DNA from: an uncultured bacterium
Lineage (GTDB): Bacteria; Chlamydiota; Chlamydiia; Chlamydiales; CAYWQB01
Assembly: GCA_964460785.1 (NCBI GenBank)
Contig: CAYWQB010000001.1
Location: 244,657-308,656, forward strand
Direction: 5' to 3'
DNA length: 64,000 bases
Positions 2,777 through 23,652 of the stretch are shown in pieces. Within the stretch, counting starts at the first letter, position 1. Each line of letters begins with the position of its first letter. The position numbers and the translations under genes are program-made. The notes below the pieces were generated by a model that searched no databases, was not told the origin of the DNA, and saw only the letters and a program-made list of their open reading frames with translations.

Positions 2777-4194
2777 CGATCTAGAGTCTCTATGTATGAG
2801 AGGTTTTCCCCCGCTTCATTTAGCAAGTCAAAGTAAGAGCTAAGAACTTGATATATAGAAGTACTAAGCAAGTGATGCACATCACGGTTAGCTTTTACGA
2901 CCTCTAAAAAATCCAGCGTGGTAATAACCTCTTCAATTTTCTGTTGTTCAGCTAACTCTAGATTTAACTCAGATAAGCGCACAGCCTCTTCTGCTATCAG
3001 GTATTGTAAAATTGTTTCTTCTAAGCGAATGAAAGCCTTTTCTACATCTGCGGAAACCTTATTCAGCAGAAGCTGCTGCCCAGCCAACTGAGAATCAAAA
3101 AGATAGCGCGCCTTTTTTACACTATTTTCCCTTGCAAAGCTATCAAAAAGAGACCAATTCAACCGAATCGTACTCTCCCAGCGATACTTCAAAGAACCAA
3201 AACTCGTTCCAGATCCTTCAGGGCCAACATAGTTCACCTCAGCTGAAATATCAGGTACATACTTCCCTATTTGCTCACGATAGCCCGCCTTTGCAGCCTT
3301 CACTTGCTGCTCTTGAGCTTTGAGAGAGGGGTTGTTTTCGATCGCTCGTGCTAGCCATGAAGAGCGCACCTGAGCTCCTAGTACCCCACCTTCGAAAAGC
3401 TCCTGTAAAGCATCAAGATCCATCCCCACAAGATGATGGGCTGTAATACCTCTTGCCTCTAGGCTTGAAGAAAAAAGAGAGACAAACTCCTGCAGGTCAT
3501 GAAAGGCCTCAAAACCCAAGTCTTCATTTTGCAATGCCCATTTGTCAATATGGGTAGAATCAAATCCCATCAGTTGGTTAAGACCTAACTTCGCATCATG
3601 AAGCTCTCTTAAAGCAGAATAATAGCTTGCAAGCGCCTGGGCAAGGGCGACTTCACTTTGCAACTTTTGAAAGTCCGTAGCATATCCTTGTTCAGCCTTC
3701 AGGCGTTCATTTTTTACATCAGACTGTAAGAGAGAAACCTCTGCCTCTTGGATTTGCAAGTTGCGTGCTGCTAGAGCAACCGCAAAGTAAGCTTTACGCA
3801 CATCTGTTAACAGTTGACTCCCAACCTGCAAAAAGTCAAATGCACTTGCTTGAAACTTTGCGGCACTCGACCGATAACGAAACCAAGTATTTGTCGAGAG
3901 TAACTGTTGGCTCAACTGAAAACGACTACTATAAAAGCGTGTTCCTGAGAAATAAGGCGAAGGTTTACTTGCTTGCCGCCTTGACGCGCTATAACTAATC
4001 TGGGGTAAATAAGCGGCAAAATCCACCCGTTTTGTTGCTAACTGTGCCTGTGCAGAGAGTCGTGCTTGCTGATACGCTTGGTTTTGCTGAAAAGCGATCT
4101 TTTCTACATCATAAAGAGATAGGGGCTCACTCGCACCCAAAGACAAACCTAAGCTCCATGCAGAAAGCAGGCAAAGAGCAAGCTTAAACTTCAT
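2773..4194 (-). CDS. TolC-like outer membrane efflux protein (OEP family)
   Basis: Signal peptide MKFKLALCLLSAWSLGLSLGA. The N-terminal LSLYDVEKIAFQQNQAYQQA pattern and the two-repeat helical architecture are typical of the OEP/TolC family. Its start overlaps the stop of the upstream NSS gene by 11 nt. Confidence 0.75.
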   Translation of the reverse strand: MKFKLALCLLSAWSLGLSLGASEPLSLYDVEKIAFQQNQAYQQARLSAQAQLATKRVDFAAYLPQISYSASRRQASKPSPYFSGTRFYSSRFQLSQQLLSTNTWFRYRSSAAKFQASAFDFLQVGSQLLTDVRKAYFAVALAARNLQIQEAEVSLLQSDVKNERLKAEQGYATDFQKLQSEVALAQALASYYSALRELHDAKLGLNQLMGFDSTHIDKWALQNEDLGFEAFHDLQEFVSLFSSSLEARGITAHHLVGMDLDALQELFEGGVLGAQVRSSWLARAIENNPSLKAQEQQVKAAKAGYREQIGKYVPDISAEVNYVGPEGSGTSFGSLKYRWESTIRLNWSLFDSFARENSVKKARYLFDSQLAGQQLLLNKVSADVEKAFIRLEETILQYLIAEEAVRLSELNLELAEQQKIEEVITTLDFLEVVKANRDVHHLLSTSIYQVLSSYFDLLNEAGENLSYIETLDR

Positions 4195-5671
4195 ATTTCC
4201 TCATCGTCATCGGTTGAACAAATAGTGTAATTATACCTGCTAAAAGCAATACTACAAAAAACCAGCCCCAGCGAATGGCTTCTGCTAAGTGAAAGCCCGT
4301 ACGAATTTCCGCTGCTAAAGCGCCACCAAGCCCCATCAATAACAAAGTCAGTGTCACGCTACGTAAAATCATATATGCATACTTCGAGCGCATAGAAGAC
4401 TGCCAAATAGGGTGATGCTTAATCTCTTTAGATAAGTAAAGAAACACTACGATTTCAACGATGCCTCCAATCAGCACTGCATCCCCCATCAACATCGGCT
4501 CGATCACTTGCATAAGGTAAAGGCCATTTCCCATACAAAGAGGAATGGCAAGCAAAGAGCAACCAATGAGGACAAGCATGAGTGCTCTGTGGCGCGAAAT
4601 GGGAAACTCTTCCACCACGTTGCCAATCACAGCTTCTAAGATAGCAAAAAGCCCGGTAGTACCGGCAATAAACAAGCAAAAGAAAAAGAGGAACCCTATA
4701 AATTGAGAGAGCCCCCCTCCAAGGGTAAGCATAATTTTTGGGAATACGACGAAACCAAGCTCATAAACCGATTCTAAATGAATCAGTTCTCCAATCTGCA
4801 TCCCATTCACATCAGCAATGAACCCTAAGCAGCCAAAAATCGCAATGCTTGCCAAGACAGACACAAAAAAGTCTCCAAAGGCAACAGCAAACATTGCACG
4901 AGGCAAGTTGGTTTCATTTGTTGTATATCTAGAAAGTCCTGTGACAATGCCCAACCCAAGAGAAAGGCTAAAAAAGGACTGCCCTATCACATCTCGCCAT
5001 AAAAATGGGCTGGCCAAGCGACTCATATCTACTTGAAAAAGATGCACGACTCCTTCAATAGACCCGGGCAAGACAAAAATCAACAGAACAAAGAGAACCA
5101 GTAGAGTAAATAGGAGAGGTAGAAAGAATGAGCAAAAGCTTTCAAGTCCACGCCGGATATTTTTATGTAGCACCCACCAAGTCAGCAAAACAACAATCGC
5201 AGATGCAATGCCTACCTTATAAGAAAAGCCTCCAAGTTCTGTGAGCTGGCCTGAAACAGATAAAAATTCATCTTTAAAAAAGAGGTCGGTTGCTTCTCGC
5301 ATATTCCCCAGGGCAGAAAATAAAGCATAAGCCCCTGAATAACCGGAAATTACAATATATATAGCCCCAATCGTAAAGCAGGTCAATACGGAGAACCAGC
5401 CAAAAAAGCGCCATTTTTTCCCTTGAGCCAGAGCAAAGCAAGTTGTAATAGGCTTACGATAGGTCTTCCCTAAGAAGCTTTCTAAAAATAAAAGGGGTAG
5501 AGCCATCAACAGCAAAACGAGCAGGTAGGGCAACATAAATGCCCCTCCCCCATTTCGGTAACAATGCCCACTGAAGGTCAATATGTTACCAAAGCCAATC
5601 GCCGAGCCAAGCATCACATAAATGTAACCAGACTCTTTATTCCATGTAGGACCTTGCGCTTGTCTTAGCAT
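4184..5671 (-). CDS. Sodium-dependent transporter, neurotransmitter:sodium symporter (NSS/SNF) family, paralog 1
   Basis: The motif GFGNILTFSGHCYRNGGGAFMLPY matches the NSS TM1 signature (GxGNxWRFPxxxxxNGGGAFLIPY). The protein is polytopic and hydrophobic at 495 aa, with an ATG start. Confidence 0.85.
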   Translation of the reverse strand: MLRQAQGPTWNKESGYIYVMLGSAIGFGNILTFSGHCYRNGGGAFMLPYLLVLLLMALPLLFLESFLGKTYRKPITTCFALAQGKKWRFFGWFSVLTCFTIGAIYIVISGYSGAYALFSALGNMREATDLFFKDEFLSVSGQLTELGGFSYKVGIASAIVVLLTWWVLHKNIRRGLESFCSFFLPLLFTLLVLFVLLIFVLPGSIEGVVHLFQVDMSRLASPFLWRDVIGQSFFSLSLGLGIVTGLSRYTTNETNLPRAMFAVAFGDFFVSVLASIAIFGCLGFIADVNGMQIGELIHLESVYELGFVVFPKIMLTLGGGLSQFIGFLFFFCLFIAGTTGLFAILEAVIGNVVEEFPISRHRALMLVLIGCSLLAIPLCMGNGLYLMQVIEPMLMGDAVLIGGIVEIVVFLYLSKEIKHHPIWQSSMRSKYAYMILRSVTLTLLLMGLGGALAAEIRTGFHLAEAIRWGWFFVVLLLAGIITLFVQPMTMRKYEV

Positions 5672-5876
5672 TCCAGTGACTCATCTTAGGATACCTCACG
5701 GTATGCCATAATATGAACATTCTGAGAAAGAAAAAGTCTTCTCTTAAGCAGCAAGAATTATGCCAATAAAGAAATAAAACAAACCAATAGTACAAATACT
5801 AAAGTGCATAGATTTATATAATAAATTATTTTAAAATAAAACTAGGATTAGTTTTGTATTATAATAGGTTATTCTT
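5672..5876. promoter_or_regulatory. AT-rich divergent intergenic region between NSS paralog 1 and giant ORF 1 (probable divergent promoters)
   Basis: A 205-nt, very AT-rich spacer between divergently oriented genes. A TATAAT hexamer lies at 5860-5865, only 11 nt before the ATG at 5877. No clear SD precedes 5877. No transcription start can be assigned from sequence alone. Confidence 0.3.
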
Positions 5877-8800
5877 ATGGCTACAGGCATTGGTGGTGAC
5901 AGTGGCAACTTAAGAGGAGACTCTACTAGTAGAGGAGAGCCTGAGGAATTTGATAGAGAAGAAGCAGCACAAAGAGATGAAAGCGCAGGTCAATCATCTG
6001 GCTGGGGGTTTTCCTTAAGTGGAGCTTGGAGAAGCGTATTCGGAGGAGGTCAGTCTGCTCCAGTCGCTCCTTCTACCCCTTCCACAACACGACACTTAAG
6101 TCTTACTGAACAGGTCTTATCAAGAGGCTCTGGAACACTCGAATCTATGCTGCATCGCCCGAAGGTTGATGGGGGAAGTCTCTCACTATATGACATGGAC
6201 CAAACAGATATCTTACGTGTCCGTAAGGCGGCAAAAAAAGACATCTCTAGCATTGAAGAAAGGCTCACAACAAGTGGCTTGTTTGATGAGTCCCTTATTG
6301 CTAGCACCCCGGAAGCCACGAGGCGAAGCATCCAAGAGACCGTGATCGAGCAGATTAACGAAAAGATGGGCTTTGTGTGTGTTGATGAGGATGGGAAAGG
6401 GAAAAGGCTCCCTCCCCTTGCTAAAGAAGCAATTGAAAAGCTTGTTGTCCACCGTGTTAAGCAAGAAGAGATTGAGTTTCAACTCCGCAATAGCAATATC
6501 CACCTTTTAAGAGTCTTAGAAGGATTCCCTGGGGGGCGCAGTCAGTTAGACAACCTCAGCCAAAGGCTTTATGAACTTGCCTGCATTGAAAATATCCATA
6601 GTGCATATAGCAATCATTTTTCTGACTATGCGCGCACGCAAAGTGATGAAAACTTAGCAATTTCTAGAGTAGCCTCTGAATATAATGCTTCATTTATGGA
6701 TAGAGCCAGTGTAACTAAGGCTCAAGCTCTTCTACAAGAAATGACAGATCGAACTGTTGAGGTTCATGAAACCATTGTTCGAGGGAGAGCAGATGAAATA
6801 GCTTCTTTAGCCAGCTTGCGCTGTGTGCGCTCGCAACAAAGAGTGAAAGAAGATCTCTTTAAAAACTTCTATATTGACTCAGAAACAGGCAAAACGTGGG
6901 AAGAGATCTCTGCAGAAACAGGATCTACAGTGATCACACCAGATACCCTAGACCGATGGATAGCTAAAATCCAAAAAAGCTACTCCGATGGGTTTGACCG
7001 TACGCTCTCCCCTATGGAAAGGCATGAAGCTGCCTGCCACCTCCTGTTTACCCAACTCGATGACTTGCGTGTTTATTTAGAAAGTGCTCGTAGCAAATTC
7101 ACTATTCTTGATGATAGAAAAACGGTAATTGTTGGCTTAGGGATGAAACTAGCCAATAACAATGGAGACCATATACATGTCAGTGCATCTGGAGAGGTGA
7201 CCATCAGAACAGAAGATGGGACTCTTGTTCTTGGCAAAGGTGAAGAGAAGTCCTTGGATGGGGGAAACTGCACAGTATCCTTAGGCTCAGAAGAAGGGTC
7301 TCTTCCAGTTGTTCGATATCATGGAGATGAGCGTTTTGAAGGAATGGGAGAGGTTCCTACGGTTACCAGTACATGGGAAGGGCCTGTCTTAAACATAGAA
7401 ACAGCAGGATCCTTCTGGACTGCGGCAACCACCTCTCGCGAGACAGACCTACCAGAAGAGCTAAAAGATGTTGTAGACCCAAAGTTAATCGAAACCTTCA
7501 TTCTACCGAAAATTCGACATAACATTCAGAACTTTCAGCTTAGGCTTGAAGAGGTTTCCTCAGCAAAATTTACAACCCCTGCCGAGCTTTTTACTCTAGA
7601 AAGAGAGGTGAGGATTGAACAAGCACGAGCGACTGGAGAAGAAAGAGAACGGGAAGATAGGAAACTTGATGCATTTGTCGCTGACCATTTCCACATACTC
7701 GATTACTTAGAGGTAGGAGTCGATGAGGATGCGCTAGAGGATGCCATGCGAGAGTCTCAGTATGCAATTGCACACCAATCAAAAATTCGTTTCGGCGCTA
7801 CAACCTCCTCATCATTGCGAGGACTTTCAGATGTTTTGGATAATGCCAAGAGCATTTTTTGGAAAAGAACAACCAATGAAGACCACATACAGAATCTAAA
7901 TGACCAGGTAGGCGACCTCAGAGATAAAATTACTGCTATGGAGCGCCTACCTGAAGGTGAGCGGTCAGAAAGTGAATTGCAAAACTTAAAACTTGCTATT
8001 CTGGAGGTAAAGAAAACAAGGCTTTGGTACGAAAAGGAAGAGCTTATTGCTGTGATGCAAAAGGTGATTCAAAACTTAACAGCATGCAACTCTTCGACAG
8101 AAGCTGCACAACCTAAAGATGTGGCCAGGCATAAAGCCTCTCTAGAAGAGGCCTATGGCAAGTGTGCTGCAAAGCTTCGTGAGCTAGAAAAAGAACTCGA
8201 GGATAACTTATCTGAAAGTAAGGATCTCCGCTCTGCTTCCTTTTCAGCAATCCCTGGATCGAGCTTAATGAGCTTACTAATGGACAGCGGGCAGGCAGCC
8301 ATTCTCCATTTAAAAGAGTACTGGCACCAACAACCTTCAATAGAAGAGATGAACCGTCGGCGTGCTCTTGCTGATATTGGTTACAATATGGTTGACGGGC
8401 TCAACCTCATCAAATCCGATATCTGTAAAGCGTTAAAAAAAACCGCAGGGGGAGAAGTTACTCTTCAGGGCTTTACTCGCGAGCTAGCGAGAGAGGCTAC
8501 AGCGGTTTTAAAGTTTATGCAAGATAACCCTGAAATGGGATCCACACTTGTTGCAGACCTCGACCAAATTGCGAATCTTGTAAAAGGAGATAGAGATGCG
8601 GCTCTCTACTTAAAGCGCATCCGCACGCAAGTCCTTTCGCATGCATTTTTACGAGGCGTTCCTGGAGATGAAGAAAGGCCTATGGCCGACCCAGAGACAA
8701 TCAAGCGCATGCAGGCTATCTGTGATGCTGTTCGTATTCTTGTCCCTTTAACTGGAGCTGCCTCTGAAGCATTTTCTCCAGAACAACGCAGCAGTGTCGT

Positions 8801-18329: not shown

Positions 18330-20201
18330 ATGGAGGGATCACATTTTCAGCTAGGACCCCAGGGAATCAGTGAAGAGTTACTAGAGGAGAAAGACTCTTC
18401 TCGCTTTACCTTCTGCTGTGATGCCTGCTCTCCTTTTTCAGACTCTTTAAAGGAAACAGCTAAGCGTCTAGCAAAAGCCTGGCTGGAAGAAGCTCTTCCA
18501 AAAGCTCAATGGACAAAAGAAGAGCTCATCCAATCTTTGCGTCTCGTCAACGAGCGGTTACGCAGTCACTTTAAAAAAGATAAGCGACGCCTCGCCTTGT
18601 CCATCGTTCTTGTTGCTGAACAACCTACAGCCAATCAGCTTTTTGTTTTTTCTTGCGGAGATATCCACCTCACCTACCTTGAAAGTAACCATCTGCAAGT
18701 TCTACATAAACCTAAGCACAGCTCTAACCTCCCCTCTGAAAGGGAGCGGTTAAAATACCTTAACCAAACATTTATTCGCTCGGCGACCCCTCATATTGAA
18801 GTTTCTACACTCCCTGCTCAAACAACACGAGGGATGGGCCTAATTCCACAATCTCTTTATCACTGTTTGACAGAAGAAGAGATCGTGGCTTTGTTGCAAA
18901 CTCCTTCAAACCTTCAAATGATTCTGGATCAACGGCAAATTTTGCTTCCTCATACAGAAGTGGTTATTTGCAAGTCTGCAAACACTCTGTCTGAACAGAT
19001 CCAAGAAGAGATGAACCCTCAGAGTATAGCTATGAGTAAAGAATCACAATCCATGACCCCTTCGGGTCTTCCCAAACCTTCACAGCAAAAATCCCCGAAA
19101 AGAAAGATGGCCCTTTCTCTTACAGTAGGAGCCATGGTGATTGCTGGTGGAGCAGGACTCTATCAACTGATGAGTGGGCCTAGTCCCACCAATCAAACCT
19201 CCTCTCAGCCTGTTGCGACCCATAGCCCTTTAGAGAACCAAACAGAGCAAACAACTCTTGTCCAACAACTGAAAGAAGAAAATAGATCTTTAACACAAGA
19301 AGTGAACCAGCTAGAGGTCAGCTTAAGAGAAGAGGTTGAAAAAAGTCAGTTTCTTCGCGATGCGCTCAATAAAGAGATGAGCAAGCAGGAGAAAGATCAA
19401 AGTGCCGTTGCTTTACTAGAGGAGAAAATTTCTCAACTTGAAGTGCAACTAGAAGAAGAGCAACGCATGAGAAAAGCAGCTCGCGCGATGCGCCTACATG
19501 CTATAACAGGGTTAAAGCGCCCTGAAGAGCAAGAAGGTGTTCCTCTCAGCCTTCCTGAGTACGAAATCTCTAAGCTAAGAGACGAAAAAGCCACTCTTGA
19601 GAGCAAGCTTGCAGACTTAGCTCTACAACATGACAACCTTGTCGCTGAAAATCAACTCCTTACAGAACAAATTGAAACACAGCATGAAAACACACCTTCC
19701 CTAGACCCCTCTGCCACACAAGAAAATGTAGCCCTCAAGCAACGAGTTGAAACGCTCGAGAGCCAACTAGCAAAAGAAAGCAAAGAAGGCGAATACTACC
19801 AAATTTCCTATGAAGCATTAAAAACAGAGCTTGAGCGGCAAAGAGAAAAAAATACCCTTCTCCAGTCTGAAGTCCACTCTCAGAAGCAAGCATATCTAGC
19901 TCTGCTACAAGACCAAGGCATTGCTCGCCCCCTTCCAAAGCTAGAGCCGACACAAAAAGAACAACCTCCTGCTCCTAATAAAACAGAAGAATCCCTCCCT
20001 GAGCATAAAAGCAGTGTCGTCCATGTGGTGCAAAAAGGAGAAACTCTGTCTGAAATTTCCATGCTTTATTATGGAAGCTCAAAGCAGTGGAAAAAGATTC
20101 TTCAAGCCAATAAAGAAAAAGTTCCAACCTCTAACCTAGTCATTGTTGGAACCGAATTGGTTATTCCTGAACCTTCAGTTAAAGGACAAAGATATGAATA
20201 A
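18330..20201 (+). CDS. Membrane protein: degenerate PP2C-like cytoplasmic domain, one TM, coiled coil, C-terminal LysM
   Basis: The TM segment is MALSLTVGAMVIAGGAGLYQLM (about nt 19107-19172). It is followed by an S/T/P/Q linker, a ~230-aa heptad region and a P-rich spacer. The LysM motif is VHVVQKGETLSEISMLYYGSSKQWKKILQANK...GTELVIP. A GAGGT SD precedes the ATG, and the stop overlaps the exbB start. Confidence 0.75.
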   Translation: MEGSHFQLGPQGISEELLEEKDSSRFTFCCDACSPFSDSLKETAKRLAKAWLEEALPKAQWTKEELIQSLRLVNERLRSHFKKDKRRLALSIVLVAEQPTANQLFVFSCGDIHLTYLESNHLQVLHKPKHSSNLPSERERLKYLNQTFIRSATPHIEVSTLPAQTTRGMGLIPQSLYHCLTEEEIVALLQTPSNLQMILDQRQILLPHTEVVICKSANTLSEQIQEEMNPQSIAMSKESQSMTPSGLPKPSQQKSPKRKMALSLTVGAMVIAGGAGLYQLMSGPSPTNQTSSQPVATHSPLENQTEQTTLVQQLKEENRSLTQEVNQLEVSLREEVEKSQFLRDALNKEMSKQEKDQSAVALLEEKISQLEVQLEEEQRMRKAARAMRLHAITGLKRPEEQEGVPLSLPEYEISKLRDEKATLESKLADLALQHDNLVAENQLLTEQIETQHENTPSLDPSATQENVALKQRVETLESQLAKESKEGEYYQISYEALKTELERQREKNTLLQSEVHSQKQAYLALLQDQGIARPLPKLEPTQKEQPPAPNKTEESLPEHKSSVVHVVQKGETLSEISMLYYGSSKQWKKILQANKEKVPTSNLVIVGTELVIPEPSVKGQRYE

Positions 20202-20922
20202 GCTGATCAATCGGCCTATGGCCTGGACTCTCCTTTGTGCTGTGTTTGCGACAGCAGGTGTTGCCCTCTTTGCTCAGCAACCGGCCCCTACTGAAGCACA
20301 AACAGTCACTCTAGACCTTGGCAAAGTGTTTAAGGGTTCCCCTATCATTTACTCTATCCTCCTTCTACTGTCGATGACTGGGTTTGTGATTTGGCTTTAC
20401 AGCCTACTCACACTAAAAACTTCCGATCTTATGCCACAAAATTTTGTTGACGAGCTGGAAGAACACCTCCATCACAAACGCTATGAAGCAGCTCAAGCTC
20501 TATGTAAAGAAGAGTCCACTCTTGCTGCTGCAATTGCAAGAAGTGGCTTAGAAGCTCGCAATGGAGGAGCCAAAGCAATTCAGGATGCTATGGAAGCAGA
20601 AGGTAAGCGCCGTGGCTTAGGCCTTTGGCAAAGAATCTCTGTCCTTAATGACATTGCAATGCTTGCTCCTATGCTTGGCTTGCTTGGGACAGTGATTGGT
20701 ATGTTCTATGCCTTCTACGATGTCAACAGGTCTACAGAAAGCTTAGCATATATTTTTGATGGCCTAGGCATTGCGATTGGAACAACCGTTTCTGGCTTAA
20801 TCGTTGCCATTGTTGCAGTCTTTTTTCATACGACTTTGAAGTTTCGATTGGTCCGCGCCCTAGCAACGGTAGAGAACCGTATGACCACTATCTGCAGCCG
20901 CATTTCTTCTCATAACTCATAA
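20194..20922 (+). CDS. exbB: MotA/TolQ/ExbB proton-channel family protein
   Basis: The C-terminal pattern LAPMLGLLGTVIGMFYAF...GLGIAIGTTVSGLIVAI is typical of TolQ/ExbB. I placed the start at the internal ATG 20194, which has an AAGGA SD and an ATGAATAA overlap with the upstream stop. The ORF-track start is 20143. Confidence 0.85.
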   Translation: MNKLINRPMAWTLLCAVFATAGVALFAQQPAPTEAQTVTLDLGKVFKGSPIIYSILLLLSMTGFVIWLYSLLTLKTSDLMPQNFVDELEEHLHHKRYEAAQALCKEESTLAAAIARSGLEARNGGAKAIQDAMEAEGKRRGLGLWQRISVLNDIAMLAPMLGLLGTVIGMFYAFYDVNRSTESLAYIFDGLGIAIGTTVSGLIVAIVAVFFHTTLKFRLVRALATVENRMTTICSRISSHNS

Positions 20923-20937
20923 TATTGGAAGAGAATC

Positions 20938-21456
20938 ATGAGCTACTTACCTGAAGAAGAAATCCAGGGAAAAGGGGGAATCAACTTAGCCCCCATGATT
21001 GACTTTCTCTTTCTAATGCTTGCTTTTTTTGCCTCTCTTGCTGTGTCAAGAGTGGCAACCAAGGAGATGGATATTGACCTAGTCAAAATAGAAGAGAAAA
21101 ACGGTGCGACTGTGCAACGAGGTGAAACAGATCGCAAGGTCATTCATGTCAGCATCTCTCCTAGTGGACAATACTTGTGGAGCACAGACCTTCACGATTA
21201 CGAGATGTCTTCTACAGAAGAGATTACAAAAGAGCTTGAAAGCCAATACCAAAGAGGACTTCTCCCTCACAGTCGTGATAAAACAAGCCTTCTTTTAAAA
21301 ATCGATCGCAGTGCCCCTTGGGAACCGATTGCACGGCTTGTTTATGAGGTACGTACAAAAGGATTTGATATTCGTCCCATTTATCAAGTTGATGAATCAA
21401 CAAGCCAAAATGAGTTGGCAGAAAACAGTGAAATACCTAAAAAGAATTCTTTCTAA
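20938..21456 (+). CDS. exbD: ExbD/TolR family protein
   Basis: The N-terminus INLAPMIDFLFLMLAFF matches the ExbD/TolR signature (inltPliDvvflLLiFF). The size fits and the gene lies immediately downstream of exbB. Confidence 0.85.
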   Translation: MSYLPEEEIQGKGGINLAPMIDFLFLMLAFFASLAVSRVATKEMDIDLVKIEEKNGATVQRGETDRKVIHVSISPSGQYLWSTDLHDYEMSSTEEITKELESQYQRGLLPHSRDKTSLLLKIDRSAPWEPIARLVYEVRTKGFDIRPIYQVDESTSQNELAENSEIPKKNSF

Positions 21457-21479
21457 TCCTATTACCCCATGAGAGTGTT

Positions 21480-21629
21480 ATGCGAGTTTTAAGCCTATGC
21501 TTTTTTAGCGCCTTTCTGCTCACTCTTTCTGCATGTTCTAAACCTCAAGCAAAAGGTGAGGTAGAGCGTATTCCTGCCGGTAAACAGCAGCATTATAAAG
21601 ACTACTACCAAACACCTCCTTTAGAGTAG
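21480..21629 (+). CDS. Small lipoprotein (49 aa), not in the ORF track
   Basis: Hand translation gives MRVLSLCFFSAFLLTLSACSKPQAKGEVERIPAGKQQHYKDYYQTPPLE*, with a canonical lipobox L-S-A-C. Its TAG stop (21627-21629) overlaps the GTG start (21629) of the next lipoprotein gene by 1 nt. Confidence 0.5.
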   Translation: MRVLSLCFFSAFLLTLSACSKPQAKGEVERIPAGKQQHYKDYYQTPPLE

Positions 21630-22987
21630 TGAAGCAGTTAATACCGCTTTTTCTTAGTCTACTCCTTCTCTCTGCATTTACTGGTTGCCAACGCACACCA
21701 AGTAAAATCCGAGCTGCTTATACAGAAGCCTATTTTCATGGGGACCTGTCAAAAGCTGAGGAAGTTCTCACCTCTAAGATGAGTCCTTCCCTTAAGCGAG
21801 GGCAATATACGGATGATGCAGATGCTATTTGGTTTCTTATGGAAAGAGGAACCATGCGTCTCCTGCAAAACCAGCCTGACCTTGCTTGTGTCGACTTCAA
21901 CCTTGCCCTGCAAGCATCGGACTACTACCAGCAAGAAGACTTTAAAGAGCAGGCCGCAAAGTTTTTACTTTCCGATGAGGTCTCTGCTTTTCAAGGTGAA
22001 GGCTATGAGCAAATCATGCTCCGCCTCTACTTTGCTTTTGCTCTTATCCAGTCTGGAGAGGAAGCGAATGGTCTTGCATTATTACGGCAGATCCAAACAT
22101 TTTCTGAATTGAGACAGGAAACCTTAAGGTCAAACAAGCTGACACAGGGTCTTGAGCAATTCAATAACCCACTAGCAGACTACCTGCTTGCTCTCTTTTT
22201 ACAAGCTGGTGGCGATCAAAGTAATGCCTCAATCCTATACCGCCGTGCCAAAAAATCTTTTCCTCCCCTCTCTAAACAGCAAGCACAGCAGCTTTTCCCT
22301 AAAACCATAGATGATGAGCAAGCGACAGTCCTTATTCTAGTGCATAATGGCAACATCCCCTACAGAGTCTCTGAATCTGCCATGCAGACAGAAGAGTCTT
22401 TAATGTTGCTGAATATTCTGCTGACAATGAATGACATCTCTAAGCCCAACCTCACCCAAATTCCTCATATCCCTGTTCCCGCTTTAAGAGATTGGCCAAA
22501 TGGCTTTCCTTGCCAGGTACAGCTCAAAATCAATGAACAATCACAACCTTTAACTTTAGCCCTTAACCTACGAGGCATTGCAGGCAAAGAGTTAGCGCAA
22601 GCTCTGCCATTAATCAAAGCGAGAGCGGCAACTCGCTACCTTTTGCGAGAGGCCACCGTCGCTTCTGCCCAGTCAAAAGACCACCTAGCTGGCTCTATCC
22701 TTGATTTGGGGATGACCCTGGCAAACAAGCTGACGCAGGCTGACACACGCTCATGGCTAAGCCTTCCGTATACAATCGGTCTTTCTCGGTGCAGCTTACC
22801 TCCAGGCAGCTACCCTCTAGAAGTCATGTGCTCGTTCCCCTCTTCAGCCTCTTCCTATTCTTTGCCAAGGTTGAAGCTGAAAAAGGGAGACCTGTGTATG
22901 ATCCATTTATTTAGCATTCATCCAGGGGTGTTTCGTTATCTTATCCCTGAGACTTTCCTAGACAAGGAGATTCCCAATGAAATTTAA
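21629..22987 (+). CDS. Lipoprotein, 452 aa, function unknown (possible helical-repeat N-terminal region)
   Basis: The signal peptide and lipobox are LLLLSAFTGC. The start is GTG. The gene overlaps the downstream gene by 11 nt and is part of the exbBD-linked lipoprotein run. Confidence 0.7.
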   Translation: MKQLIPLFLSLLLLSAFTGCQRTPSKIRAAYTEAYFHGDLSKAEEVLTSKMSPSLKRGQYTDDADAIWFLMERGTMRLLQNQPDLACVDFNLALQASDYYQQEDFKEQAAKFLLSDEVSAFQGEGYEQIMLRLYFAFALIQSGEEANGLALLRQIQTFSELRQETLRSNKLTQGLEQFNNPLADYLLALFLQAGGDQSNASILYRRAKKSFPPLSKQQAQQLFPKTIDDEQATVLILVHNGNIPYRVSESAMQTEESLMLLNILLTMNDISKPNLTQIPHIPVPALRDWPNGFPCQVQLKINEQSQPLTLALNLRGIAGKELAQALPLIKARAATRYLLREATVASAQSKDHLAGSILDLGMTLANKLTQADTRSWLSLPYTIGLSRCSLPPGSYPLEVMCSFPSSASSYSLPRLKLKKGDLCMIHLFSIHPGVFRYLIPETFLDKEIPNEI

Positions 22988-23588
22988 AACTCTCACTTTA
23001 ATGACTGCCACCTTCTGCCTACTCCTTTCTGGATGTGGAAGAAAAATCCGTACAGCAGAAGATGTCACTCCTGGACATGCAAATACTGGAGAAAGATTAG
23101 ACTGGCGCTATGGAGCCAATGACCTTAAGATCCAAACGACAAGTGTACTGGAAACGCTTATGAACCGTTGGTTCAAAAAAACACAGTACAAAGGTGAAGA
23201 GGGGAAACCCGTCATCATTGTCACGAAAGTAGAGAATGAAACAGATACTTATATTCCTACCGCAATGATTCGGGATGTTATTGAGGGAATTGCAATTGAT
23301 GATGGGCGCTTTTCGATTGCAGTTGGAAATAGTGCAGACCAGAAAGAGCTAGATGCTCTTATGGCAAAAATTCAAAAAGACCCTCTCTACAACAATGAAA
23401 GTAGAATCAAGGGCAATAAAGGAAAGGCTCCTCAGTTTCTGGCTAAAATTCGCCTTACAAAAGCAGTCACCTATCAAAAATATTATGATATTGAAGATTA
23501 CCGTATGACGGTGACGCTCTATGATATTGAGACGCAAGAAGCGATAGATTCTGCTTGGGATGTAATGCGCAAGAAGGTTGAGTTATAA
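22977..23588 (+). CDS. LpoB-like (COG3417-type) lipoprotein, 203 aa
   Basis: The lipobox is LLLSGC. The core PVIIVTKVENETDTYIPTAMIRDVIEGIAIDDGRFSIAV and the C-terminal YRMTVTLYDIETQEAIDSAW follow the E. coli LpoB pattern (VLLVDSVNNRTNGSLN...LANNGKFTLVS ... LQMQLMLVQTGEIIWSG). A GGAGA SD is present. Confidence 0.65.
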   Translation: MKFKTLTLMTATFCLLLSGCGRKIRTAEDVTPGHANTGERLDWRYGANDLKIQTTSVLETLMNRWFKKTQYKGEEGKPVIIVTKVENETDTYIPTAMIRDVIEGIAIDDGRFSIAVGNSADQKELDALMAKIQKDPLYNNESRIKGNKGKAPQFLAKIRLTKAVTYQKYYDIEDYRMTVTLYDIETQEAIDSAWDVMRKKVEL

Positions 23589-23617: not shown

Positions 23618-23652
23618 GCCGAAGCTACTTCGTGTAGTCTTCGGCTTTTTTA
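23618..23652 (+). terminator. Rho-independent terminator after the lipoprotein operon
   Basis: GCCGAAGCTAC (from 23618) pairs with GTAG-T-CTTCGGC (ending at 23645) around a short loop. The run TTTTTTAT follows. Confidence 0.6.

Follow-up and report, generated by a model that had tools for sequence, protein, structure and literature searches.

The six genes at positions 18330-23588 of the 64-kb window analyzed here (the whole stretch of DNA under study, from contig CAYWQB010000001.1 of an uncultured bacterium of the order Chlamydiales) form one operon that appears to join two envelope modules. In the composite model that we prefer, and to which we give about an even chance of being correct, a motor with its partner protein (module A, 18330-21456) lies beside a separable set of lipoproteins (module B, 21480-23588) with a related envelope function. 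Module A consists of an ExbB-ExbD proton-driven motor of the TolQR/ExbBD/MotAB kind that is translationally coupled to a lineage-specific partner of 623 residues. Module B comprises the lipoproteins lp49, lp452 and lp203, which occur recurrently behind exbBD in Chlamydiota and probably act in the same maintenance of peptidoglycan and outer membrane; they may be the motor's counterpart on the outer side, without being obligatory to it. The first-pass annotation of this DNA had proposed an envelope machine driven by the proton motive force and built from all six proteins. Such a machine is only partly supported, since the operon, the motor and the linkage of the partner to it were upheld but the lipoproteins as obligatory parts were not. 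All the results are computational, and the organisms concerned are uncultured.

Open reading frame (ORF) calling on the window yielded six ORFs on the + strand that span 18330-23588, in agreement with the six-gene cluster described earlier and with the coordinates of a previous listing. They encode the partner (18330-20201, 623 aa), ExbB (20194-20922, 242 aa, with an ATG start at 20194), ExbD (20938-21456, 172 aa), lp49 (21480-21629, 49 aa), lp452 (21629-22987, 452 aa, with a GTG start) and lp203 (22977-23588, 203 aa). The junctions were found to be as tight as the first-pass annotation had claimed. Thus, the stop of the partner gene overlaps the ATG of exbB by 8 nt (ATGAATAA, 20194-20201), the stop of lp49 and the GTG of lp452 share 1 nt (TAGTG, 21627-21631), and lp452 and lp203 overlap by 11 nt at 22977, with AAGGAG just before; the two remaining gaps are of 15 nt (exbB-exbD) and 23 nt (exbD-lp49). 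The terminator previously placed at 23618 was also confirmed, because a hairpin at 23618-23645 (dG -17.3 kcal/mol, z = -5.2) was matched in stability by none of 200 shuffled sequences and is followed by U6, the whole element occupying 23618-23651 on the + strand; a consensus terminator scan had missed it, and folding against shuffles found it. Upstream of the operon the sole sigma-70-like match is a weak promoter candidate (18014-18043, +, TTTACA-18-TATGTT), defined by consensus only, and such matches are fewer in the window than in shuffled sequences; this one is no evidence of function. No tRNA and no Rfam family were detected in or beside the cluster in structured-RNA and tRNA scans. The distant relative L005 carries all six genes in the same order, at identities of 31, 64, 61, 53, 45 and 72 % for the partner, exbB, exbD, lp49, lp452 and lp203, respectively, which indicates that the six genes are not chance ORFs.

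The motor and its partner protein

The assignment of the two motor subunits rests on Pfam matches which, like those to LysM and LpoB described below, are above their gathering scores. The 242-aa subunit, whose N terminus resembles a signal peptide, belongs to the ExbB/TolQ family (MotA_ExbB, PF01618, E = 1.9e-21, 76.6 bits versus a cut-off of 22.9), and the 172-aa subunit to the ExbD/TolR family (ExbD, PF02472, E = 1.1e-11, 45.3 bits versus a cut-off of 25.4). The solved structures nearest to the motor were those of TolQ (2.8e-5), ExbB (1.4e-4) and TolR (6e-4). In the alignments to TolQ and ExbB both pore Thr residues, in transmembrane (TM) helices 2 and 3, are kept in the window ExbB (LLGTVIG versus LFGTVWG and GTTVSGL versus ATAIGL), and the TM3 Glu is replaced by Ile. 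Asp22 of the window ExbD pairs with the TM Asp of Escherichia coli TolR (INLAPMIDFLF versus INIVPLLDVLL). The motor therefore retains the key residues of its kind, i.e., the Thr ring of the pore and the proton-binding Asp. The scores against the NCBIfam equivalog models were far below their cut-offs (54 versus 221 bits for TolQ, 34.5 versus 206 for ExbB and 31 versus 127 for TolR), which places the motor in neither the Tol nor the Ton subfamily.

The partner is made of four parts, namely an N-terminal cytoplasmic domain, one TM helix, a segmented helical stalk and a LysM domain, in line with the TolA/TonB-like body plan of membrane anchor, extended spacer and distal domain that had been suggested for it. 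The TM helix (aa 260-281, 19107-19172, MALSLTVGAMVIAGGAGLYQLM) corresponds to the hydropathy maximum (1.63), and because the positively charged stretch KSPKRK precedes it on the N-terminal side, the partner would be a bitopic inner-membrane protein with its N terminus in the cytoplasm and its C terminus in the periplasm. The predicted periplasmic stalk (aa ~300-545, 19227-19964) is a region of about 250 aa in which Glu, Lys, Gln, Arg and Leu account for a fraction of 0.54. A heptad scan revealed heptad-rich segments at residues 305-387, 410-450 and 488-517, parted by Pro/Gly breaks, and a Pro-rich linker leads to the LysM domain (aa 565-613, 20022-20168, PF01476, E = 1.1e-5, 25.7 bits versus a cut-off of 20.9). 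This domain, 60 % identical to the LysM of L005, should be extracytoplasmic and is predicted to bind peptidoglycan; Pfam and NCBIfam recognized LysM only at the C terminus, with no TonB_C or TolA-III domain.

A homology search with the whole partner returned only the query itself, its candidates having probably been swamped by coiled-coil words, and the N-domain alone, and then a profile, were used instead. In an exhaustive phmmer search of 1.84 billion representatives the sole relative of the N-domain was P0028 of locus L005 (33 % identity), and the profile search added ten proteins of about 400 aa, which brought the family to 12 members. The N-domain (aa 1-257, 18330-19100) had no Pfam or NCBIfam match, and none of the 12 family members matched the Pfam models PP2C, PP2C_2 or SpoIIE at E <= 10. 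When a seven-sequence profile of the N-domain was compared with the Protein Data Bank (PDB), the top match was the phosphatase tPphA (E = 0.038, collinear over 165 residues), the family-invariant GD being aligned with the GDSR motif of tPphA (D111 of the window protein with D119 of tPphA). An AlphaFold2 (AF2) model of the domain (predicted local distance difference test, pLDDT, 77; predicted template modeling score, pTM, 0.73) was then compared with the PDB by Foldseek, and all of the top 50 matches were PP2C/PPM phosphatases (best E = 7.6e-8, template modeling score about 0.55-0.63), including PppA, tPphA, PstP, STP, SpoIIE-family members and plant and human PP2Cs. As modeled, the N-domain has a PP2C fold, and the PP2C-like domain of the first-pass annotation is therefore borne out at the level of the fold by AF2/Foldseek, with tPphA also first in the profile search.

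The pairs C30-D31 and G110-D111 do not vary among the seven aligned sequences, and in the whole family of 12 their conservation is at least 90 %. The metal ligand D193 of tPphA (CSDG), on the other hand, faces Gln in the window N-domain and Tyr in its relatives, and the conserved E15 appears to sit where the phosphate-binding Arg would be expected, the N-terminal motifs having been judged by position only. The domain lacks the complete set of metal-binding Asp and phosphate-binding Arg residues of the PP2C/PPM phosphatases. To judge from these alignments, a catalytically inactive pseudophosphatase is the likeliest identity of the N-domain, an idea already put forward for it that has held up with the loss of the D193 equivalent and the missing Pfam PP2C match in the 12 family members.

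The distribution of the motor was analyzed in the 80 best ExbB relatives among species-representative genomes (46-58 % identity, the best 58 %), which are nearly all labelled Chlamydiae, Chlamydiales, Parachlamydiales, Simkaniaceae or Rhabdochlamydiaceae. The gene order round ExbBD is highly fluid in Chlamydiota, and in most relatives exbB-exbD is a two-gene unit that faces divergent conserved genes of housekeeping type (c4-c2-c3). This divergent set lies opposite exbB in about two-thirds of the Chlamydiota loci (L006-L085), and by eye c4 resembles the tRNA methyltransferase TrmB and c3 glucose-6-phosphate isomerase; the motor of the window and of L005 sits in a different neighborhood (holA, SNF transporter). 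In many of the Chlamydiota ExbB orthologues the signal peptide and the first TM helix are separated by a periplasmic extension of 100-350 aa that is extremely acidic and of low complexity (L019, L030, L031, L035, L044, L046-L048, L055, L061, L062, L064, L069, L070, L077, L079 and L085; the exbB genes concerned are at about 7300-8700 in most loci). The extension of the window ExbB is short.

Three forms of the partner were found, all of them encoded on the same strand as exbB and directly upstream of it. The first, with N-domain, TM helix, stalk and LysM, is that of the window and L005; the second has TM helix, stalk and LysM without the N-domain (L018 and L036); and the third ('c24') has the N-domain, a TM helix and a short coil without LysM (L007, L008, L009, L015 and L056, and also L086). 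In all eight known contexts (window, L005, L007, L008, L009, L015, L056 and L086) the gene for the N-domain immediately precedes exbB. In a neighbor-joining tree of the ExbB core plus ExbD (75 loci, 362 columns, no bootstrap support), the nine partner-bearing loci, a minority of the 75, grouped in a clade of their own, and ExbD measures 168-175 aa in eight of them (154 aa in L018) versus a median of 154 aa elsewhere; the window ExbD is about 20 aa longer than that of Chlamydiota without the partner. An exclusive clade and a longer ExbD fit a single origin of the partner and its co-inheritance with one variant of the motor.

In the c24 subclade (L007-L009, L015 and L056) exbD is followed by one or two lipoprotein genes (e.g., L009, 9169-10141), of which c33 encodes an acidic, low-complexity protein with a WYGKDHF motif and c70 a protein of about 150 aa; the c33 and c70 lipoproteins may be the periplasmic or outer-membrane counterpart in the LysM-less version. 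In L086 (2092-7046) the N-domain gene, exbB, exbD and a 155-aa gene form a perfect inverted duplication on one ENA contig, with genes for 234, 175 and 155 aa on both strands; this may be a genuine palindromic duplication or an error of assembly.

These features suggest how module A could work. The TM helix of the partner would dock on the ExbB pentamer, and the segmented stalk would carry the LysM domain to the peptidoglycan, which would make the partner a transducer like TolA and TonB or a wall anchor like MotB. The PP2C-fold domain, with its catalytic residues lost, could be a regulatory, binding or scaffold module at the cytoplasmic face of the motor.

The lipoprotein module and its linkage to the motor

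All three proteins encoded downstream of exbD (on the + strand) have a lipobox, LSAC in lp49, FTGC in lp452 and LSGC in lp203. The small lipoprotein lp49 ends in a C-terminal YY-DYY-PP motif, in which Y39, Y42, Y43 and P47 are invariant in the family, and a scan of about 1.7 Mb of loci gave no further instance of this motif. Homologues of lp49 adjoin exbD in L005 and L018 and a homologue of lp452 in L003. Neither lp49 nor lp452 matched any Pfam or NCBIfam model. The AF2 model of lp452 (pLDDT 87.5, pTM 0.88) has a tetratricopeptide repeat (TPR) domain at aa ~24-222 and an alpha/beta C-domain at aa ~230-440; Foldseek against the PDB gave TPR matches only (E >= 2.5e-3), the C-domain being without a match among solved structures. 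A homology search with lp452 gave 26 homologues, and the alignment columns of the family contain an invariant ADTRSWxxLP motif (aa 371-380, 22739-22768). The protein lp203 is a member of the LpoB Pfam family (PF13036, E = 1e-10, 42.1 bits versus a cut-off of 22.3), in keeping with its earlier description as LpoB-like, but on its score against the NCBIfam LpoB equivalog TIGR02722 (33.2 bits, below the cut-off of 110.55) it is not an LpoB equivalog. No tblastn match for lp452 or lp203 was obtained against plasmids.

A search of the metagenomes of the Joint Genome Institute, in which the ADTR[SQT]W motif alone was the query, retrieved at least 423 confirmed relatives of lp452, and the best 80 of them (L090-L169) were examined. 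Adjacent LpoB-like genes were sought with a narrowly trained hidden Markov model of lp203, and in 46 of the 57 loci with adequate flanks among these best 80 relatives such a gene adjoins the lp452 homologue, usually upstream of it, i.e., in the order opposite to that in Chlamydiota and Campylobacter. An ExbB-ExbD pair was present in none of the 80 loci, a lone weak ExbB-like match 3.5 kb away being found in L113. The lp452/LpoB-like pair also occurs without ExbBD in L002, L003, L004, L088, L089 and L090, and in L004, L088 and L089 it was recognized through Pfam annotation. The lp452 family and an LpoB-family lipoprotein therefore constitute an old and widespread two-gene module that is separable from the motor, and the proposal that the lipoproteins are an integral part of the motor is at best partly supported, the pair being independent and having no adjacent ExbBD outside Chlamydiota.

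Within Chlamydiota, most ExbBD loci have no lipoprotein triad within 8 kb, and in L018 and L036 the partner and the motor occur without lp452 and without lp203. In four loci the lp452-lp203 pair is encoded on the same strand as exbD and downstream of it, immediately adjacent in the window and L005, behind one hydrolase gene in L019 (Simkaniaceae), and behind four genes, by eye an insertion, in L075 (Parachlamydiales). These four loci fall on three separate branches of the motor tree. By our own rough estimate, a chance of ~0.001 per genome that the pair lies within 5 kb on the same strand leads to ~0.06 cases in the approximately 47 genomes with enough flank. Hence, the two modules are linked in Chlamydiota more than chance predicts. 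The lp49-like gene follows exbD in L018, which has no lp452 or lp203, and precedes lp452 in L003, which has no ExbBD. Such differing breakpoints suggest an ancestral exbB-exbD-lp49-lp452-lp203 arrangement that has since decayed, and this in turn suggests a related function without obligatory co-transcription. The expectation that the gene order would be conserved was thus met with a divided result, since the full six-gene order is kept in one relative (L005) only and in the vicinity of most Chlamydiota ExbBD pairs both the partner and the lipoproteins are missing.

Toxin-antitoxin-like genes are present at the junctions of the modules in two loci, namely a HepT/MNT pair (Pfam) just upstream of lp452 in L002 (6095-6893), and genes of 245 and 320 aa, AbiE-like by eye, between exbD and lp452 in L075 (9204-12399), suggesting that these junctions are prone to insertion.

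Other genes surround the operon in the window. A peptidoglycan-related L,D-transpeptidase of the YkuD type (26704-27474, -, Pfam E = 1.3e-22) is encoded 3 kb downstream. Divergently upstream lies the gene for a 416-aa protein (16722-17972, -) with a two-lobed hydrophobic segment at aa ~68-108 and then a long coiled coil, which by eye resembles a chlamydial inclusion-membrane (Inc) protein. In the same place L005 has three tandem genes (3958-7589) for 414, 397 and 397 aa; the two of 397 aa were grouped as relatives, and the one that was compared with the 416-aa protein was weakly similar to it (E = 0.003). The intergenic region upstream of the operon also contains an ORF for a very basic 48-aa product (MPPAKTKKEKKR...KKKVKKSKK, 18043-18189, -), which is called as a gene in L005 as well (7700-7843) and is weakly conserved there (46 % over 26 aa, pairwise E = 2e-6).

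The composite model and its alternatives

Several observations weigh against the composite model. The SHLS/His motif in the TM helix mediates the docking of TonB and TolA on the motor; the TM helix of the partner contains no His, and a scan of the whole window with the SHLS regular expression gave no match. A LysM tip would bind a static polymer, so it is hard to picture what work the motor might do on it. That the PP2C-like domain is inactive is deduced from a marginal alignment (E = 0.038) together with a structural model whose confidence is moderate. A partner gene is missing next to about 88 % of the orthologous ExbBD pairs of Chlamydiota, which implies that the motor works without a partner or with unlinked ones, and the exclusive clade of partner-bearing loci, in a tree without bootstrap values, may simply mirror the phylogeny of the organisms. 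Finally, in three chlamydia-like loci (L002, L003 and L090) a small lipoprotein is encoded together with lp452 and lp203, and the flanks available contain no ExbBD.

An obligatory six-protein machine, in which ExbBD would energize a LysM partner that acts on the three lipoproteins at the outer membrane and the whole would functionally replace TolA-TolB-Pal, seems to us unlikely. The tight six-gene operon, the full order in L005 at 31-72 % identity, the linkage of ExbBD to lp452-lp203 on three branches of the motor tree and the occurrence of lp49 with either module speak for it, as does the succession of exbD and lipoprotein genes (c33, c70) in the subclade that has the N-domain only; moreover, the hp0018 mutant of Helicobacter overproduces outer-membrane vesicles, which resembles the tol-pal phenotype. 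Against this, the lipoprotein pair had no ExbB-ExbD pair beside it in any of the 80 metagenome loci, the triad occurs without ExbBD in the three chlamydia-like loci, most Chlamydiota ExbBD loci are without the triad within 8 kb, and L018 and L036 combine partner and motor with neither lp452 nor lp203.

The partner could also be a transmembrane sensor or regulator, in which LysM reports the state of the peptidoglycan and the PP2C-like domain is the cytoplasmic output. The large conserved cytoplasmic domain is foreign to TonB and TolA, PP2C domains are signaling modules, the SHLS docking motif is absent, and the domains are modular, LysM having been lost in the c24 subclade and the N-domain in L018 and L036. 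Nevertheless, the partner gene is immediately upstream of exbB in every known case, with a start/stop overlap in the window; it has been inherited together with a distinct clade of ExbB/ExbD in which ExbD is longer; the loss of the catalytic residues would preclude signaling by dephosphorylation; and the versions of L018 and L036, which have no cytoplasmic domain, keep the TM-stalk-LysM plan beside exbB. We judge a sensor to be quite improbable, and we are as reserved about its possible elaborations, i.e., that the output would be, for example, the binding of phosphoproteins of chlamydial Ser/Thr kinase or Rsb networks, or that the partner would brake or gate ExbBD as FliL or YcgR do on MotAB or would merely be co-expressed with it.

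A more far-reaching possibility is that a subset of Chlamydiota couples the inner membrane to peptidoglycan and outer membrane by a proton-driven system that is independent of Tol-Pal; the motor would move or tension the LysM stalk, the pseudophosphatase would gate it, and lp49 would provide the link to the TPR/LpoB-like pair. Chlamydiota are reported to divide without FtsZ. We regard this coupling as a long shot; if true, it would give the Cj0089/HP0018-LpoB-like module its first mechanistic role and explain why the chlamydial ExbBD is kept without TonB.

Mere adjacency is very improbable in our view. Unrelated envelope gene sets would here have been joined by rearrangement in a small genome and co-transcribed, and the partner would be an ordinary peptidoglycan-anchored coiled-coil protein. 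The fluid gene order round ExbBD in Chlamydiota, the toxin-antitoxin-like insertions around the modules in L002 and (by eye) L075, and the separate occurrence of each module elsewhere are consistent with this explanation. However, the N-domain family adjoins exbB in all eight cases and is confined to one clade of the motor, and the linkage of modules A and B on three branches exceeds the ~0.06 cases expected by chance.

A divergent Tol-Pal system, with ExbB and ExbD as TolQ and TolR and the 623-aa protein as a divergent TolA, has hardly any likelihood. ExbB and ExbD do score best against TolQ and TolR models and structures, the stalk resembles the helical domain II of TolA, and Chlamydiae have been reported to have tol-pal (PMC7391070). 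Yet, in a crude motif scan, neither the 64-kb window nor the 8-kb surroundings of the 81 orthologous ExbBD loci contained a PD40 (TolB) or OmpA-C/Pal motif, none of the 26 window ORFs scanned matched TolB or Pal in Pfam, the NCBIfam scores for TolQ (54 versus 221) and TolR (31 versus 127) are sub-threshold, and the partner has no SHLS motif and a LysM in place of TolA domain III; a Tol-Pal identity was accordingly rejected. A Zorya-like defense system was also rejected, since the only PADLOC match was a weak, generic one of the MotA family to ZorA (8.8e-5), with none for the five remaining proteins, and the conservation of the motor pair across the phylum beside housekeeping genes contradicts it too.

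Comparison with known systems

Chlamydiae keep ExbB/ExbD but lack TonB and TonB-dependent receptors (PMC5599777). The locus described here offers a candidate partner for the chlamydial ExbBD, co-inherited with one clade of the motor, that would direct the motor to peptidoglycan and not to a transporter of the outer membrane. Like TolQ-TolR-TolA and ExbB-ExbD-TonB, which are 5:2 proton motors whose bitopic transducer spans the periplasm, the window system has subunits of the ExbB and ExbD families with the TM Asp of ExbD and the pore Thr residues of ExbB. Its partner is likewise encoded beside the motor genes and has one N-in TM helix, a long spacer that is helical as in TolA domain II, and at the C terminus a small globular domain. 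It differs from them in that the TM helix of the partner has no SHLS/His, LysM takes the place of TonB_C or TolA-III, and a 257-aa cytoplasmic PP2C-fold domain is present where TonB and TolA have a short tail. In addition, the partner gene precedes exbB, the neighborhood has no gene for TolB, Pal or a TonB-dependent transporter, and the motor subunits are no closer to the Tol than to the Ton subfamily.

Force transducers of the von Willebrand factor type A (vWA) kind, which are tethered to the inner membrane, are encoded beside tolQR-like genes and have a C terminus unlike those of TonB and TolA, have been described in bacteria of the Planctomycetes-Verrucomicrobia-Chlamydiae (PVC) superphylum and others (Mol Biol Evol 2025, PMC12204202). 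By analogy, they are the closest published concept to the window partner, with which they share a non-TonB tip on a motor-adjacent protein, the PVC superphylum and a co-occurring TPR gene (PMC12204202). They have a vWA domain and, in one family, SHLS plus His, whereas the window partner has LysM, no SHLS and a PP2C-like domain, and no sequence relation between the two was detected. The catalogue of alternative partners of 5:2 motors, which has only lately begun to be drawn up and includes the vWA types (PMC12204202), would thus gain a LysM-tipped stalk and an unusual cytoplasmic pseudoenzyme of PP2C fold.

A peptidoglycan-binding module tied to a motor of the MotA/ExbB family is also found in MotB/PomB and in extended TolR, and in the case of ExbD a LysM-like motif for the binding of peptidoglycan has come under discussion (PMC9389320). 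Unlike in these proteins, the peptidoglycan-binding domain of the window system is on a third protein with a stalk of ~250 residues and not on the Asp-bearing axle, and it is LysM instead of OmpA-like. With PP2C/PPM phosphatases (tPphA, PstP, PppA and SpoIIE) the N-domain shares the fold, the GD of GDSR (D111) and probably the Asp equivalent to that of DGxGG (D31), but it has no Pfam PP2C/SpoIIE match, its D193 equivalent is Gln or Tyr and the phosphate-binding Arg has apparently become E15. We found no description of an architecture with a PP2C-like domain N-terminal to TM helix, stalk and LysM.

The resemblance of lp203 to the PBP1B activator LpoB of E. coli lies in PF13036 membership and in being an outer-membrane lipoprotein, whereas lp203 is below the equivalog cut-off and has a short linker after the lipobox. 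Chlamydiae are not known to have class A penicillin-binding proteins (PBPs) such as PBP1B, which makes it unlikely that lp203 is a PBP1B activator.

The lipoprotein module itself has a counterpart in the Cj0089-Cj0090-Cj0091 lipoprotein operon of Campylobacter jejuni (453, 122 and 207 aa; PMC3100323), to which the first-pass annotation had likened it by size. The operon is real, and it pairs a TPR lipoprotein, Cj0089, with Cj0091, which is orthologous to the LpoB homologue HP1457 (PMC11394524). Both it and the window (49, 452 and 203 aa) have a ~450-aa TPR lipoprotein encoded directly upstream of a ~200-aa LpoB-family one. The correspondence does not extend to the whole triad, however, because the middle gene of the Campylobacter operon, for the YcfL-like Cj0090 (122 aa), has no equivalent in the window, where the unrelated lp49 comes first, and no ExbBD has been reported beside the Campylobacter and Helicobacter clusters. 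In enterohepatic Helicobacter species hp0018 adjoins hp1457 (PMC11394524). An hp0018 deletion mutant sheds outer-membrane vesicles in chains and is altered in cell shape, AmiA and MltD were co-immunoprecipitated with HP0018, and an envelope/peptidoglycan-related role has been suggested for this protein (PMC11394524). Cj0089/Cj0091 and HP0018/HP1457 have both been linked to the upkeep of peptidoglycan and outer membrane. Likened by their published descriptions (size, TPR and gene order), Cj0089/Cj0091 and HP0018/HP1457 probably belong to the same module as lp452 and its LpoB-like companion, and the linkage of that module to a proton motor in Chlamydiota provides a hypothesis for its role.

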